Source: Promethearchaeota archaeon
Lineage (GTDB): Archaea > Asgardarchaeota > Lokiarchaeia > Sigyniarchaeales > SOKP01
DNA: 64,000 nucleotides
NCBI GenBank assembly: GCA_030603385.1
Contig: JAUVXW010000007.1
Location: forward strand, 73,678 to 137,677
Reading direction: 5' to 3'
The notes under the pieces are model-generated. The model did not search any database. It saw only the letters and a list, made by a program, of their open reading frames with translations, and was not told where the DNA came from. Below are positions 10,449-62,945 of this stretch, piece after piece. Position 1 is the first letter of the stretch, and the number at the start of each line of letters is the position of its first letter. Position numbers and translations under genes: made by a program.

Positions 10449-10937
10449 CTAATAGAATTCCTCAAAGGGCCCACTAATTAATCCTCCAATCGAACCTCCT
10501 ATAAACGCCCCTAACAGACCACTTATAATTCCACCTAAAGTTTCAGATAATTGTGTGCCTTGGAATAATGCCATCAAATCCTCACCAGAAACTATGCTTA
10601 AAATTATCCATAATAATATATCAACAACTACTACTAGTAAACCTGCTATTATCCCTCTTCGCAAACCTTTTGCAATTGTACCACTAATATATCCTATAAA
10701 AAGCCATGCTAAAAGTTGGGCTGCGAAGAAACCTGAGACAGTTAAAGATCCAGTAAAAAACGCTATTATATCAAATTTAAAATTTGCTCCTATCAATAGT
10801 GCAGTTGCTTTTAGCAAATCAGTATCAGCATAAATTTCGATTTGGTTAAAGATACTTTCCATATTAAAGAAAAACACACTTAAAAAGCTTAAAATAATTC
10901 CTATAAGAATCCCAAAAATCAAACGGTAGGAAGCCAT
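10449..10937 (-). CDS. Gly-rich multi-pass membrane protein of unknown function
   Basis: About 4 hydrophobic helices with GxxxG repeats. Confidence 0.7.
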   Translation of the reverse strand: MASYRLIFGILIGIILSFLSVFFFNMESIFNQIEIYADTDLLKATALLIGANFKFDIIAFFTGSLTVSGFFAAQLLAWLFIGYISGTIAKGLRRGIIAGLLVVVVDILLWIILSIVSGEDLMALFQGTQLSETLGGIISGLLGAFIGGSIGGLISGPFEEFY

Positions 10938-11160
10938 TGTTTAAATCAGCATAAATTTATTTATAATATTATAATTATGATTGAATAATAATTAAAATCA
11001 TTTTTGCTATATTAATTCTTAAGTTCTGAATTAATTAGAAAGTTTCTCTTAATAAAATATTAAAGTTAAGATGTATTTAATCAAATATTCATAACTTTTT
11101 GAGAATTTTGTTATGGATTAATAGATTTAATAAAAATATAAAATAAATAAGGCTACTATA

Positions 11161-58615: not shown

Positions 58616-59815
58616 TCATTTTTTATTATTTACAAAATGCTTTAAGACAACTATATAATTTTTTACAGTCAATATTTTGGGATTTTTTCTATAATTTGCT
58701 GGAATTGGGGCATTACATCGAGAACAGAGGTTTGAACTTCGCAACCAATCCTTAAATTCATCTGCATGAGCAGGATATCGACATTTAGGGCATAAAATTA
58801 TTCCTCTACCTCTGTCTTCAGGAAATTTCGGCAATTTAAAACAAAAGATACATTTAAAATCCTCTGTTGATAAACGTCCTGCTTTTGGTTTATATAAATT
58901 AAAATTACTTATTTTTCTGGTGCTTTGTTTACTTCTTACTTGTGTTCCTGCTGGTCCTCTACTTACAGATCGAGTAGATGTTTTGGACCTTGTAGATCGC
59001 CTGTTTGCTGTTGGTGTTGATCTCGATGAATGACTAACTGATCTTGATCTATTAGTTACAGTTCTGGTTGAGGGTGTTGGAGATGATCTTGTTGTTGTAC
59101 GAAGACTTTCTCTATATCTTCTAGGACTTATATTTCTTCTAGGTGATGCTAATTGATTTAATCTATTTGTACGTTGTGTTATGTAATCTCTTGTTAATTG
59201 GGGTAATTGTGATCGCGTCCCAAATAATCCTGGGATAATAATTATTAATATAGTACTGATAAGCAATGCTAAAAGATTAAGATCTATTAAAAAATGAAGA
59301 GGTATTAAATGGAGTTCATAGAAGTCGATAAGTGAATAAAAGCTTATCCAATAAATAATTATGAAAAACAGAATTGAGATACCTAAAATATATCCAAATT
59401 TACGTGCATTTACGGATTTCGTTCCAAAATAAATTACATTATATTTTTTGAAACAACGATATAGAGAAATTGAACCATATAATATATAAGGAAATCCAAA
59501 TAGAATACCCCACCAGCTTAAATACAAATCTGAATCTTCTAGAAGATTTTCTCCCAATAAACCTGTAAAATTTCCCCAGATTGAATAAAAAATTCCAATA
59601 AAAACAGGAGCAATTGTAAAAAATGCAGTATTATGAGGTGAATTATATTCGCGATATTGTTTAATATTTTTTAAAACCTTAAATGAAAAAATTAGCCAGA
59701 TTCCAATTAACAACCAACTTACAAATACATTAACAGAATTTAGAATAGCACCATGTATTATGCCGATAATTGAAAATGCAATTAATAGTAGAGCTATTGA
59801 TTTAGTTTTCACCAC
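58616..59815 (-). CDS. Roughly six-TM membrane protein with R/S/T-rich linker and C-terminal RING-like finger (putative membrane E3 ligase)
   Basis: Six hydrophobic segments in the N-terminal half, then CIFC..CPKC..H..E...W..CSRC; last gene of the ubiquitin cluster. Confidence 0.7.
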   Translation of the reverse strand: MVKTKSIALLLIAFSIIGIIHGAILNSVNVFVSWLLIGIWLIFSFKVLKNIKQYREYNSPHNTAFFTIAPVFIGIFYSIWGNFTGLLGENLLEDSDLYLSWWGILFGFPYILYGSISLYRCFKKYNVIYFGTKSVNARKFGYILGISILFFIIIYWISFYSLIDFYELHLIPLHFLIDLNLLALLISTILIIIIPGLFGTRSQLPQLTRDYITQRTNRLNQLASPRRNISPRRYRESLRTTTRSSPTPSTRTVTNRSRSVSHSSRSTPTANRRSTRSKTSTRSVSRGPAGTQVRSKQSTRKISNFNLYKPKAGRLSTEDFKCIFCFKLPKFPEDRGRGIILCPKCRYPAHADEFKDWLRSSNLCSRCNAPIPANYRKNPKILTVKNYIVVLKHFVNNKK

Positions 59816-59844
59816 GGCTTAATAACCCCCTTCTATATCATAAT

Positions 59845-60657
59845 TTAATCTTCGTCATATTCTAAATAAATAGGTTTCCCCTGAATAATAGGATTCATAA
59901 ATGCTAAGATATCTGGTAACATTCGTATGTCTAATGACCCTTTAATTCCATATAATAATGGATACCACGTTTTTGTCTTCAGATTTGCTCGATAAATCTC
60001 AAAACCCGCTGAAGTTCCATCAATAAGGTAAGGATCAATAACAAGCGCAACGGCTTTATCCCAGAGTTTTTGATATCTTTCTTGAGTGCCTATATCTTCA
60101 CTAGACATGAAACAGCCAAAAGTTGGATGTGAATGATACCATCCACACAAGAATAATTTTTGTTTTTTAATATCTCTATAAGCTCTCACATAATTCTTAT
60201 AATCTTTAATTTCTGCATAAACTGCGGTTCCATGCCCCATTGGGTAAACATCTTCGATATGTAGTATTTCATTTTTATCTAATTTTCCTCCAAGAAGCCC
60301 TATAACTTCCACCCAATTTACTTTTGGAATCTTATTATTAGCATATTTAAGCGCATGGCTTGCTATTTTAAGGATTGCTTTTATTGAAATATAGATTTCT
60401 TTTTGGATTTCCAGTTCAATTTGAGTTTCAACATTTTTTTTCTCTACTATTTTAGCAGTAGGTTCTTTTGAATGTTTTATGATTGGTTTAGTATTTGATT
60501 TCTGTGTAAGCATAGAAGTAATTTCTTCTGTTATTTCTTCTTCTTCTAATTTAAGCTCTTCACATATTTCATCTAATAATTCTTTTTTTATTTTTTCCTT
60601 AATTTTCCTCTTAATTTTATCTTTTATTGAATTATTAGATAATTGTTTTTCTTCCAT
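59845..60657 (-). CDS. JAMM/MPN+ metalloprotease (Rpn11/CSN5-like deubiquitinase)
   Basis: EVIGLL, GWYHSHPTFGCFMSSEDIGTQ and ALVIDP motifs; charged N-terminal extension. Confidence 0.92.
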   Translation of the reverse strand: MEEKQLSNNSIKDKIKRKIKEKIKKELLDEICEELKLEEEEITEEITSMLTQKSNTKPIIKHSKEPTAKIVEKKNVETQIELEIQKEIYISIKAILKIASHALKYANNKIPKVNWVEVIGLLGGKLDKNEILHIEDVYPMGHGTAVYAEIKDYKNYVRAYRDIKKQKLFLCGWYHSHPTFGCFMSSEDIGTQERYQKLWDKAVALVIDPYLIDGTSAGFEIYRANLKTKTWYPLLYGIKGSLDIRMLPDILAFMNPIIQGKPIYLEYDED

Positions 60658-60663
60658 TAGGAA

Positions 60664-61191
60664 TCACCACTTCTTATTTGCATACTTTTTTACTAGGTTT
60701 TTAACTTTTTTCTCGAAAAACTTAGGATTTTTCATCATTTCTATTGCTGCTTTTTTATTAAAAACATCCGTTGGATTTACATATTTACCACGGGTGTTTA
60801 ACATAGCAATTATTGCTTGAACAACTGTTACTGCTTTTTTTGATGGACTCCATCCACCTTTTTTACCAATAAAAGAGGGATCTACTAAAGCTAGACAAAT
60901 ATTCCTCTGTCCTTTATATTCAGTAGGTTTTGGCCAAAAATTTGGATGCCATATTGGAGTATGCATTCTTACAAAAGGCGGTTGTTTAGGATACTGAGTA
61001 GGAAATTTCATTTCCAATTTAAAGACACCACCCCCATATGCAGTACCTTTAGGACCTTTAATAGTTAGAGCTAAATGGTCAATACTCTTTCTTTTTGGAT
61101 TGAATGGTTTTAATTGAACAATGGCTCCTTCTTTAAGCATTTTTTTTAATCCTGCAAAATCTTGGGAAATACGACTACTTCTTATACTCAT
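60664..61191 (-). CDS. Ubiquitin-conjugating enzyme E2
   Basis: GPKGTAYGGGVF, FP.QYP..PP, HPN, catalytic ICL and WSP motifs. Confidence 0.95.
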   Translation of the reverse strand: MSIRSSRISQDFAGLKKMLKEGAIVQLKPFNPKRKSIDHLALTIKGPKGTAYGGGVFKLEMKFPTQYPKQPPFVRMHTPIWHPNFWPKPTEYKGQRNICLALVDPSFIGKKGGWSPSKKAVTVVQAIIAMLNTRGKYVNPTDVFNKKAAIEMMKNPKFFEKKVKNLVKKYANKKW

Positions 61192-61293
61192 TTTTTCATA
61201 CCTTTTTATTATTTATTCTAATTCTTTATTATTATATTTTTTTTTAATGTGTTTTTTGTTAAATTTTATATAAAATATTTTTTGGTTAAATTC

Positions 61294-62529
61294 TTATCTC
61301 AATTTTAAGGTTACAAAAATTTCTCCATCCTTAAACCCTGCAGCTGTAATTAATTCATAATTTCTCAAATCATTTTCATCAGGGGTCTGTTCTAAATCTA
61401 TAATCTTTATATCATTGAAATCTAATAAAGTTAGGATTGGCTCAGAATCTTTATCCAGTTCAAAACCATTATTTTTCAATATCTCAATTAATCTTCCACA
61501 GGGTGATTGAGATCTCAATTTTATAGAAACTCTTCTAACATGTTTACCACATTGAGAACATTCTGGATTTCTCTTTTTTTCAATATGATAAAATTTCATG
61601 GTCATTGCATTAAAGATTATATAACTTTGAACAGGCTCACCTAATCCTTTATGTCCCTTTCTCCAATGAAGAATTTTTACTACTTCATGTGATTGTAATG
61701 CTGAAATAACTGCGTTTATTGTTATTATTCCAGGATCATGTCTATCAATAATTTTTACAATATCATCTTCTGTATATTCAGGTAAGAAATTATGTTTATT
61801 AGCTAATTCATTTGCAACCTTTTGAATGAATTTAATATCATTTAAATTCTTTGGATTTGGTTCTTTATCAAATTTTTCTTTAAATGCCATATCTCCTTTG
61901 AAAACGCAATGAATTCTTTTTCGGGGGACTCCTACAACTGTACAAGCTGCCATCTCATCATTTTCCCCGACAGGTAATGGATTGCATTCATAACAAGCAT
62001 TTTGGTAAGGAAATATTGTATATACATGGCCATGATAACCAGATACACCTCCATCCACTAGAGGTTTTTTGAATCTTATACATTGAGCATTTAAGTTTAA
62101 ACGTGCATTCATCGAATCAAGGCCACCTATGATAACATCAGCAGCTTGATATATCGCAGGATTCAATCGTTCTAATGAAGTATGATATCCTTTGACAATG
62201 ATATTAGGATTAATTTCCCTTAGTTTTTTAGCCGCAACAACTGCCTTAGGCTCTCCGATCTTTGCTCCAGTGAAAAGAATTTGTCGGTTCAAATTAGAGT
62301 GTTCAATGATATCTAAATCGACGAGATCTAAATAACCAACTCCAAGCATAGCTAAGTTCTTAGCAATTTCACAACCTAAACCACCAACACCTGCTATTAA
62401 CACTCTCGAATTTTTTACCAATTTTTGAGACCAACCCTCAAAACGAAACTGGCGGTCATATAAATCTCTCTCTTCCTCTGATAGTTCTTTTCCGAAAAAT
62501 TCTGAACCCTTATCCAATATTATCACCAT
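61294..62529 (-). CDS. Ubiquitin-activating enzyme E1 (Uba3/Uba2-like)
   Basis: YDRQ, GVGGLGCE, SNLNRQ, CYEC, catalytic-Cys segment ACTVVGVPRKRIHC, and C..CG. Confidence 0.93.
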   Translation of the reverse strand: MVIILDKGSEFFGKELSEEERDLYDRQFRFEGWSQKLVKNSRVLIAGVGGLGCEIAKNLAMLGVGYLDLVDLDIIEHSNLNRQILFTGAKIGEPKAVVAAKKLREINPNIIVKGYHTSLERLNPAIYQAADVIIGGLDSMNARLNLNAQCIRFKKPLVDGGVSGYHGHVYTIFPYQNACYECNPLPVGENDEMAACTVVGVPRKRIHCVFKGDMAFKEKFDKEPNPKNLNDIKFIQKVANELANKHNFLPEYTEDDIVKIIDRHDPGIITINAVISALQSHEVVKILHWRKGHKGLGEPVQSYIIFNAMTMKFYHIEKKRNPECSQCGKHVRRVSIKLRSQSPCGRLIEILKNNGFELDKDSEPILTLLDFNDIKIIDLEQTPDENDLRNYELITAAGFKDGEIFVTLKLR

Positions 62530-62609
62530 TAATATTAATAAAAAAAATAAAAAAAAGTTGAAGGTCTAAACGCCCTTATGTTATAATTTATGAAGAACAT
62601 TATATAAGT

Positions 62610-62945
62610 TTACCCAGCAGTACTAGCAGGGATCAAAAGAATATCATCTCCATCATTTATATGATATTCTTTTAATGAGCTATTTTCATCCATTGTCACT
62701 CCACCAGATGATAAATGAAAGTCATTAGGATCAAGTCCATATAAATTTCCTAATGTTTGCTTAATGTCATCAACGCAATTTCCGTCATTCACAGTTAATT
62801 TTTCCTTCTTTTCACCAGGACCAATAGTTGACATGAAATATAAAGTTAATTTCTTTCCTGCTGAAGGGATTTTAGTCATGGGTGTTTTAGATTTCATAGG
62901 TTCTTCCCCAACTAAATCCTCATCAAATTTTTCTTCAAAACTCAT
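62610..62945 (-). CDS. Ubiquitin-like modifier with N-terminal extension
   Basis: Beta-grasp pattern (VDDIK..L...YGL.P..FHL..GG..MDE..SL.EY.I.DGD.ILLIP) ending in Gly; directly upstream of E1. Confidence 0.88.
   Translation of the reverse strand: MSFEEKFDEDLVGEEPMKSKTPMTKIPSAGKKLTLYFMSTIGPGEKKEKLTVNDGNCVDDIKQTLGNLYGLDPNDFHLSSGGVTMDENSSLKEYHINDGDDILLIPASTAG

Follow-up and report, generated by a model that had tools for sequence, protein, structure and literature searches.

Does the ubiquitin-like conjugation system of an archaeon carry a ligase that is itself built into the membrane? This question is raised by a 64,000-nucleotide stretch of a Promethearchaeota genome (GenBank assembly GCA_030603385.1, contig JAUVXW010000007.1, positions 73,678 to 137,677), hereafter the window. 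Within its 54-64 kb section, the open reading frame (ORF) listing gives five consecutive minus-strand genes, which encode a ubiquitin-like protein (Ubl), an E1-like activating enzyme, an E2 conjugating enzyme, a JAMM metalloprotease and a transmembrane (TM) protein with a RING-like zinc finger, here called TM-RING. The region is best explained as a five-gene Ubl-conjugation operon of a Lokiarchaeia-type (Promethearchaeota) Asgard archaeon. TM-RING itself is likely a membrane-anchored RING-type E3 for the co-encoded cascade, for which we infer both E2 binding and ligase activity.

Ubiquitin tagging at membranes underlies eukaryotic endoplasmic-reticulum-associated degradation (ERAD), endocytic sorting and organelle quality control, all of which presumably arose together with the endomembrane system. 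If the ligase linked to the one E2 of this lineage is truly membrane-built, the archaeal relatives of eukaryotes could already direct tagging to the membrane before there was an endoplasmic reticulum (ER), and the operon suggests that tagging at the membrane predates eukaryotes. The Ubl, E1, E2, RING protein and Rpn11-like JAMM are co-located, as is characteristic of the Caldiarchaeum-type operon. The initial annotation had called the Ubl-E1-E2-JAMM set complete, which the Pfam identities and the readable catalytic motifs bear out, and its intergenic distances of 80, 102, 6 and 29 bp are returned unchanged when recomputed from the ORF coordinates.

The C-terminal finger of TM-RING

The finger reads C322-x2-C325...C342-P-x-C345-x4-H350-x2-E353-x3-W357-x6-C364-x-R-C367 (nucleotides 58715-58852) and is followed by a C-terminal helix at residues ~384-398. 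Among 28 diverse orthologues, the spacing C-x2-C-x16-C-P-x-C-x4-H-x2-E-x3-W-x6-C-x2-C is kept with every one of these residues invariant; in domain numbering, to which 307 is added for the protein, the full invariant set comprises Pro3, Cys15, Cys18, Cys35, Cys38, Pro41, His43, Glu46, Trp50, Cys57, Arg59, Cys60 and Tyr80. The ligand order is C4-H-E-C2, with seven invariant Cys/His positions at RING-like spacing and an invariant Glu at position 6, where RING-H2 fingers have Cys. The invariant Arg lies between the last two Cys. At the E2-contact positions, the residue after Cys1 is Ile in 25 of the 28 (otherwise Met or Ala), the Trp is invariant, and Ser, Pro or Ala follows Cys7.

AlphaFold2 models the finger as a beta-hairpin and helix core plus the C-terminal helix, with a predicted local distance difference test (pLDDT) score of 87.2. 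The 50 best Foldseek matches to this model (probability ~1.0, best E 1.5e-03) all belong to the RING or U-box domains of E3s. In VIA-align, matches range from Z 8.2 (3lrq_A, root-mean-square deviation (rmsd) 4.1 A, 75 aligned residues) to Z 6.3 at rank 50, covering 59-78 residues, and many of the matched chains were solved with a bound E2. Many matched RING/U-box chains with flanking helices, such as RING1B/BMI1, TRIMs, CHIP, Rad18 and RNF4, form dimers. The initial annotation had made the folding of the finger as a RING one of its tests, and within the reach of computation it is passed, as the AlphaFold2 model, Foldseek and VIA-align all point to a RING/U-box fold. As modelled, the finger is a RING-fold domain with a C4-H-E-C2 ligand order and a putative cross-brace.

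Searched against the Protein Data Bank (PDB), the family profile matches the RING-H2 domain of RNF24 (1.4e-05), RNF4 (8e-05) and EL5 (1.3e-03); Arkadia, RNF38 and RNF165 follow in the range of about 1e-03 to 1e-02. In the alignment with RNF24, H350 falls on RING ligand 5, E353 on ligand 6 and W357 on the E2-contact Trp. When the orthologues are scanned member by member with Pfam, Prok-RING_1 is matched in 27 of 28 (best 1.3e-06) and zf-RING_2 in 17 of 28 (best 1e-06). A search of the window's own genome with the finger profile returns TM-RING as the only strong match; a second protein with a C4HC3 finger gets a weak score.

The membrane domain and the linker

Hydropathy alone distinguishes four hydrophobic stretches in TM-RING. 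An AlphaFold2 model of residues 2-208, built on the 28 diverse orthologues, contains six long helices (pLDDT 87.9, predicted template-modelling score 0.83) and, in the cytoplasmic loop that joins TM4 to TM5, a short beta-hairpin. From the N terminus to the segment after TM6, the mean number of lysines plus arginines per segment in the 28 orthologues is 2.1/0.2/3.2/0.6/5.0/0.1/2.2, and acidic residues are located in the loops that are low in these basic residues. By the positive-inside rule, this alternation shows both termini of the predicted protein to be cytoplasmic (N-in/C-in), which places the linker and the finger in the cytoplasm. The polytopic membrane protein with a cytoplasmic RING-like finger that had been read from the sequence is consistent with the six helices, the charge bias and the RING-fold model alike.

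The membrane domain is poorly described by existing families. Pfam gives no hit on the whole of TM-RING and only scattered chance hits on the 28 TM domains, each in one or two members, and NCBIfam gives only a chance hit to AuxB (E 0.033). No invariant charged or polar residue is found within the TM helices of the orthologue alignment; its best-conserved positions are one Phe, two Pro and the basic cytoplasmic loops. The GTG start of the window gene is aligned with an ATG at the same position in the orthologues.

The linker of ~110 residues is dominated by three amino acids (R 22, S 21 and T 18 per 120 residues). Its composition and approximate length are conserved in the orthologues and its sequence is not, and it is presumed to be a disordered cytoplasmic tether.

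Conserved gene order and presence in RNA libraries

Relatives were searched in 201 genomes of the phylum. Full-length relatives turned up in 32 of the 40 genomes of the window's own family, and at least six further GTDB families have them too. Forty loci, which represent at least seven GTDB families, share the order E2-JAMM-TM-RING (two of 20 divergent loci are cut at a contig end), and it persists at TM-RING identities of 24-40% and where Ubl-E1 has moved to the opposite end of the cluster. Another 80 loci of species representatives were gathered with the RING-domain alignment; JAMM lies directly upstream of TM-RING in 75 of them and E2 upstream of JAMM in 71. The five loci without JAMM are attributed to contig ends, which is clear from the coordinates for some of the five. 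Synteny of TM-RING with the cascade across Asgard genomes had been set as a test beforehand, and it held in the informative loci. The operon arrangement is far from chance.

When 1.84 billion representative proteins are searched with a profile of the TM domain, no more than 93 clusters are found. Among these family representatives, 74 have a complete finger, with the position-6 Glu in 68 and the Trp in 69; most of the other clusters are shorter than 200 residues or have no finger region and are apparently truncated. Wherever the TM domain was seen, it was fused to the finger or, in other families, stood alone as a paralogue that lacks the RING.

Contigs from RNA libraries, in runs X16 and X17 of one metatranscriptome study, bridge the gene junctions and span 59068-62395. 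They are 93-99% identical to E1, E2, JAMM and the 5' two-thirds of the TM-RING gene. One contig of 2221 nucleotides covers 59068-61290, with TM-RING, JAMM and E2, and others bridge JAMM-E2 and E2-E1. Neither of these runs covers the flanking cyclohydrolase gene, and cover of the helicase gene is nil or nearly so; the 3' part of TM-RING (58616-59067) and the Ubl gene are also uncovered, which is not evidence of absence. The RNA contigs are compatible with expression as an operon.

Does the finger serve the E2?

A predicted complex of the E2, the RING domain and two zinc ions scores 0.34, against 0.01 for the best control. A score of this level is reached by 58 of 80 solved complexes and by 2 of 110 mismatched pairs; the range up to 0.60 holds 7 of the 80 solved complexes and both mismatches. 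A prediction in this range is more often wrong unless the guess was likely beforehand. Contact agreement between runs is 100%, with a partner pLDDT of at least 79; a score of 0.01 came from one of the three runs, and the prediction yielded no interface. Because RING-E2 complexes are solved, the pass perhaps reflects likeness to them. E2 binding, which the initial annotation had made a test of the finger, has weak computational support.

Several points weigh against TM-RING as the ligase of this cascade. The RNA-library contigs can neither prove a single transcript nor exclude DNA carry-over. The Glu at ligand 6 is not among the canonical RING ligands, and zinc site 1 is therefore putative. The residue after the last Cys, usually an Arg/Lys linchpin, is Asn, Asp, Ser or Ala, and the E2 alignment has Lys at the position of Phe62 in UbcH5. 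The window finger lies below every Pfam RING gathering cut-off, with 12.8 vs 29.1 bits for Prok-RING_1 and 11 vs 27.3 for zf-RING_2. Weak matches to zf_UBZ in 24 of 28 members (best 4.7e-04) make a Ubl-binding instead of an E2-binding role conceivable. Finally, a C4HC3 finger protein is encoded elsewhere in the genome, so TM-RING need not be the sole E3.

Some of these features would be expected if the finger were not a ligase module at all and TM-RING were a receptor or anchor in the membrane with UBZ-like binding of the Ubl or of its conjugates, or the main substrate of an E2 that conjugates without an E3. The non-canonical Glu, the missing linchpin and the weak E2-RING prediction would all fit such a role, as would the UBZ matches and those to the double zinc ribbon family (DZR), which is found in 27 of 28 members. 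To our knowledge, the small archaeal modifier protein (SAMP) systems of haloarchaeal sampylation work without E2 or E3. However, every fold match of the whole domain is a RING/U-box E3 domain, and many of these were solved together with an E2. The zf_UBZ matches extend over no more than the final C-x2-C knuckle (residues 55-67 of 92). The E2-contact Ile is conserved and the Trp invariant, and the tight, universal linkage to the E2 gene is as expected of an E2 partner. A non-ligase finger is accordingly considered improbable, and a RING-type E3 is the preferred reading of TM-RING.

Relation to Hrd1 and ERAD

The initial annotation had described the system as proto-ERAD-like and had cautioned that the resemblance to Hrd1 may be architectural only. 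Nothing backs an ERAD role or any relation to Hrd1 or gp78, and the caution holds. TM-RING has the Hrd1/gp78-type domain order, as architecture only, with six N-in/C-in helices and a C-terminal cytoplasmic finger; because the TM domain has no significant fold match, the likeness that can be seen is one of domain order only. Homology of the TM domain to Hrd1/gp78 is unsupported, as nothing rises above noise in Foldseek, VIA-align or the ESM Atlas.

Foldseek returns E 3.2 as its best match of the TM domain to the PDB. Among 48,161 chains compared by VIA-align, the best match (Z 7.5) is an unrelated Plasmodium MSP1 chain; yeast Hrd1 (9z0e_C) comes at rank 31, its Z of 5.3 covering 158 aligned residues at an rmsd of 6.7 A. 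Unrelated designed helical proteins score higher (Z up to 7.5), and in this comparison chance alone takes helical models to Z 13-14. Structures of the ESM Atlas give TM-scores below 0.5, and its feature search with the TM domain gives no usable match. Pex2/10/12, Doa10, MARCH and RNF145 are not among the matches listed, which excludes none of them.

These results bear on the possibility that TM-RING is an early retrotranslocon, in which the six-TM domain would be a homologue or functional analogue of Hrd1/gp78 or of a peroxisomal Pex2/10/12 ligase, and the tagging of misfolded membrane or exported proteins would be coupled to extraction by Cdc48 and the proteasome or to sorting by the ESCRT (endosomal sorting complex required for transport) machinery. 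The shared architecture of a polytopic domain and a cytoplasmic C-terminal RING-H2-like finger would fit, and the RINGs of synoviolin, gp78 and yeast Hrd1 are among the weak PDB matches of the finger profile (E 0.2-0.7). A RING-less TM paralogue directly downstream in other Asgard families would suit a hetero-oligomeric membrane complex, and Asgard ubiquitin has been tied to ESCRT in the literature (PMC9192718; bioRxiv 10.1101/2023.07.25.550441). Besides the missing structural match, however, the TM profile search finds no relatives of other architecture and no matches outside the family, and the TM helices hold no invariant charged or polar residue. No gene for an ERAD partner such as Hrd3 or Usa1, for Cdc48, a Der1-like protein, the proteasome or ESCRT is adjacent in the window or in the loci examined, no genome search for them having been made, and the RING-less paralogue was not found in the window genome with a single query. 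A retrotranslocon of this kind is therefore quite unlikely.

That TM-RING is adjacent for genomic reasons only and acts in an unrelated membrane process, as its TM domain of no known family would permit, is very improbable and already disfavoured, since the gene order is kept at 24-40% identity and with Ubl-E1 relocated, the gap is 29 bp on the same strand, and RNA-library contigs bridge the junctions.

A bolder extension of the membrane-anchored E3 can be considered, in which the six-TM domain would be a substrate-recognising or protein-conducting module, acting alone, dimerised through the RING or, in other families, together with the RING-less paralogue and a two-TM RING-H2 protein. The operon would then tag membrane proteins for extraction or ESCRT-type sorting, as a prokaryotic forerunner or an independent invention of Hrd1-like or Pex2/10/12-like complexes. 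We rate this extension as unlikely.

Further membrane proteins in related clusters

In other Asgard families, a multi-TM protein of ~194 amino acids with no Pfam family is encoded on the same strand directly downstream of TM-RING (L024:9206-9790 (+), L027:7474-8055 (-), L026:6733-7314 (+), L035:8641-9225 (+) and L040:3618-4202 (-)). With an hhalign probability of 81% (E 1.1e-05), it resembles a paralogue of the six-TM domain that has no RING, and it was also matched in the TM-domain profile search (P0215). The cluster of one family holds a third membrane protein (L024:9901-10491 (+)), which has a zinc ribbon at its N terminus, a canonical RING-H2 at its C terminus (zf-RING_2 1e-07) and two TM helices. 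Neither the RING-less paralogue nor the two-TM RING-H2 protein was found in the window's genome, which is 94% complete with 7% contamination; each search used a single query, by which absence is not shown. The presence of these two further membrane proteins in other families suggests that ligases of Asgard Ubl clusters are generally anchored in the membrane. The RING matches of ~190-200 amino acids in other Asgard genomes may be of the two-TM RING-H2 type and would then be membrane-anchored too.

The other members of the cascade

Coordinates of the operon are collected in Table 1.

Table 1. Genes and domains of the Ubl-conjugation operon, in window positions.
Feature	Position	Strand	Basis
TM-RING, whole protein, 399 amino acids, GTG start	58616-59815	-	ORF listing
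TM-RING membrane domain, residues 1-198, six predicted TM helices	59222-59815	-	AlphaFold2 model and lysine-plus-arginine pattern
TM-RING linker, residues ~199-307, basic, Ser/Thr/Arg-rich, low-complexity	58895-59221	-	Composition
TM-RING C-terminal RING-like domain, residues 308-399 plus stop codon	58616-58894	-	Alignment, AlphaFold2, Foldseek, profiles
JAMM/MPN metalloprotease (Rpn11-like), 270 amino acids	59845-60657	-	Pfam JAB 2.9e-17
E2 Ubl-conjugating enzyme, 175 amino acids, UBC fold	60664-61191	-	Pfam UQ_con 2.5e-25
E1-like Ubl-activating enzyme, 411 amino acids	61294-62529	-	Pfam ThiF 2.5e-60, residues 24-325
Ubl modifier, 111 amino acids	62610-62945	-	Pfam ubiquitin 3e-06 and translation

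The Ubl is composed of an N-terminal extension of ~30 amino acids and a beta-grasp domain. Its translation ends ...LLIPASTAG, that is, in Ala-Gly with no pro-peptide in the window genome, and not in the Gly-Gly of the Caldiarchaeum-type modifier. The C-terminal LLIP[AVHS]STAG is kept in nearly all Ubl copies of relatives.

The E1 has a ThiF/MoeB-type adenylation domain plus a C-terminal extension. Its NCBIfam matches to MoeB/ThiF and Ube1 all fall under the equivalog cut-offs, and its identity across the syntenic loci is 43-87%. In the E2, the HPN motif (residues 82-84), the catalytic Cys99 and the W-S-P-S of loop 7 are invariant in 20 orthologues, and this protein is the only UQ_con match above the Pfam cut-off in the window genome. 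The JAMM translation contains the catalytic residues Glu117 and the HSHPTFGCFMSSED motif, with the pattern H-S-H-x7-S-x2-D, and the protein is presumed to be the Ubl-processing and deconjugating enzyme.

Relatives differ from the window in the tail of the Ubl and in the JAMM N terminus. In several of them (L021-L040), the Gly of the Ubl is followed by 1-7 residues (F, M, K, WR, ITM, SIN, AFYFG or IHSITSR); judged by their sequences, these tailed copies are putative precursors, and the window copy is apparently already mature. The JAMM of the window has a Lys/Glu-rich N-terminal extension of ~85 amino acids (60403-60657), which is variable in length or absent in relatives, where tblastn matches begin anywhere from residue 1 to 93.

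Additional Ubl copies are found both in the same genome and in relatives. A stand-alone Ubl of 110 amino acids (L125:1501-1833 (+) = G000:C58) is 86% identical to the operon Ubl and ends in STAG. Another copy, 63% identical (L126/L127 = G000:C34, about 191168-191799), adjoins a divergently oriented ORF of ~265 amino acids that matches the Ubl at 33% identity. Counterparts of this ORF in the relatives L038/L039 have no terminal Gly, and there the pair of Ubl and ~265-amino-acid ORF lies ~2 kb upstream of the operon, the side on which the window has the SNF2 helicase gene. Close to the operon in relatives there are also long ORFs (255-602 amino acids by first-start calling) that end in a Ubl domain with an S[T/R]AG terminus (L021:14075-14317 (-), L022:1835-2116 (+), L030:9704-9952 and 10766-11134 (+)); they may be large proteins that are themselves conjugatable, or have mis-called starts.

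Proposed mechanism

A membrane-anchored E3 would complete the cascade as follows. Firstly, the Ubl, which ends in Ala-Gly with no tail, could be activated with no processing, and the ThiF-type E1, to judge from its family, would adenylate it and form the thioester. It would then be passed to Cys99 of the single UBC-fold E2, whose catalytic residues are present and whose role is likewise that of its family; the action of E1 and E2 would follow that of their counterparts in the Caldiarchaeum and Helarchaeial cascades that have been reconstituted (PMC5654768; bioRxiv 10.1101/2023.07.25.550441). The second element is TM-RING, whose six membrane helices would hold the variant RING on a basic, flexible tether of ~110 residues at the inner membrane face. 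There, the finger may recruit E2~Ubl via the Trp of its helix and the residues that follow Cys1 (the conserved Ile) and Cys7. The Ubl would be transferred to lysines of proteins in or near the membrane, or of the ligase itself, and the membrane domain would provide localisation and probably substrate selection. Finally, the JAMM could remove the tag and, in relatives, trim the tailed Ubl precursors, by analogy with Caldiarchaeum Rpn11 (PMC6043591).

Comparison with known systems

The operon shares its type of gene set, a Ubl, a ThiF-type E1, a UBC-fold E2, a RING-type finger and an Rpn11-like JAMM, with the Caldiarchaeum and Helarchaeial systems. An operon of Candidatus Caldiarchaeum subterraneum with genes for Ub, E1-like, E2-like, a small RING finger protein (srfp) and Rpn11 was reportedly described by Nunoura in 2011. 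The Caldiarchaeum Ub/E1/E2/RING system was reconstituted by Hennell James 2017 (PMC5654768) and Rpn11 by Fuchs 2018 (PMC6043591), and a Helarchaeial E1/E2/RING E3 cascade is also available for comparison (bioRxiv 10.1101/2023.07.25.550441). The established Caldiarchaeum and Asgard Ub/E1/E2/RING/JAMM clusters carry small soluble RING proteins (PMC5654768, PMC6043591). The E2-contacting Trp on the RING helix is kept in the window as in the Caldiarchaeum and Helarchaeial systems. Unlike the small soluble E3 of Caldiarchaeum, however, the RING of the window is the C-terminal domain of a 399-amino-acid integral membrane protein with a new six-TM domain and a long basic linker. Unlike both systems, ligand 6 of the window finger is an invariant Glu, and the Ubl ends in Ala-Gly rather than Gly-Gly and, in the window genome, requires no processing.

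Prok-RING_1 (PF14446) is a C4HC3 prokaryotic RING family encoded beside Ub, E1, E2 and JAB genes, and its defining paper is said to be that of Burroughs, Iyer and Aravind in 2011 (Mol Biosyst 7:2261). Its bacterial versions reportedly carry TM helices. Across the orthologues no Pfam family matches better than this one, and both the ligand order C4-H-x-C2 and the type of gene neighbourhood are common to the two. The window protein differs in that its score stays far below the cut-off given above, in the Glu in place of Cys at position 6, and in a six-TM domain that belongs to no Pfam family.

With Hrd1/synoviolin and gp78/AMFR, TM-RING shares an N-terminal multi-TM domain, a disordered cytoplasmic region and a cytoplasm-facing RING-H2-type finger. 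Homology of the membrane domain to theirs is undetectable by sequence or structure, and no Hrd3, Der1 or Cdc48 is encoded nearby; the setting also differs, as the host is expected to have no ER.

In the papers searched on Asgard ubiquitin and ESCRT, we found no description of a membrane-embedded RING in an Asgard ubiquitin operon, only soluble RING E3s. What is new here is a known cascade combined with an undescribed membrane-embedded protein that is a probable ligase, an unusual ligand set and an Ala-Gly modifier. The operon demonstrates neither the descent of Hrd1 nor an ERAD function. It offers a concrete, small and conserved system to reconstitute, with five genes, one E2 and one RING domain of ~90 residues, and two biochemical oddities, the Ala-Gly end of the modifier and the Glu that occupies a zinc-ligand position of the RING.

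Genomic setting and additional fingers

The flanks of the operon are unrelated to conjugation. They hold an opposite-strand gene for a folE2/MptA-type GTP cyclohydrolase, an amidohydrolase gene downstream and an SNF2-family helicase fragment upstream; in the window's genus, the operon is flanked by cofactor-biosynthesis genes. The G+C content of the window is ~30%. The NCBI names of the homologues are those of Promethearchaeota/Promethearchaeia metagenome-assembled genomes, some Asgard labels being evidently inconsistent, and the DNA runs that contain the stretch are metagenomes from marine sediment, cold seep, hydrothermal vent and subsurface.

A second RING-like protein is encoded in the same genome (L043:823-1962 (+) = G000:C36, about 115642-116781). 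Its 380 amino acids include a C4HC3 finger of canonical form (C-x2-C...C-x2-C...H-x2-C-x3-W), which matches Prok-RING_1 at 1.2e-04, and a double zinc ribbon at the C terminus; TM helices are not obvious by eye and were not computed. From its sequence, it is possibly an additional E3.

The finger profile of TM-RING also matches the C-terminal zinc fingers of IFT144/WDR19 (E 1.3e-04 to 7e-04), and Zf_2nd_IFT121 is matched in 13 of the 28 members (best 9.8e-04). The motif C-P-x-C-[KR]-[FY]-P-A is common to the window finger and these fingers. Unlike the window finger, the IFT-A fingers terminate beta-propeller/solenoid proteins that are not known ligases, and the similarity is weak. A distant link to the RING-like fingers that end protocoatomer-type proteins is possible.

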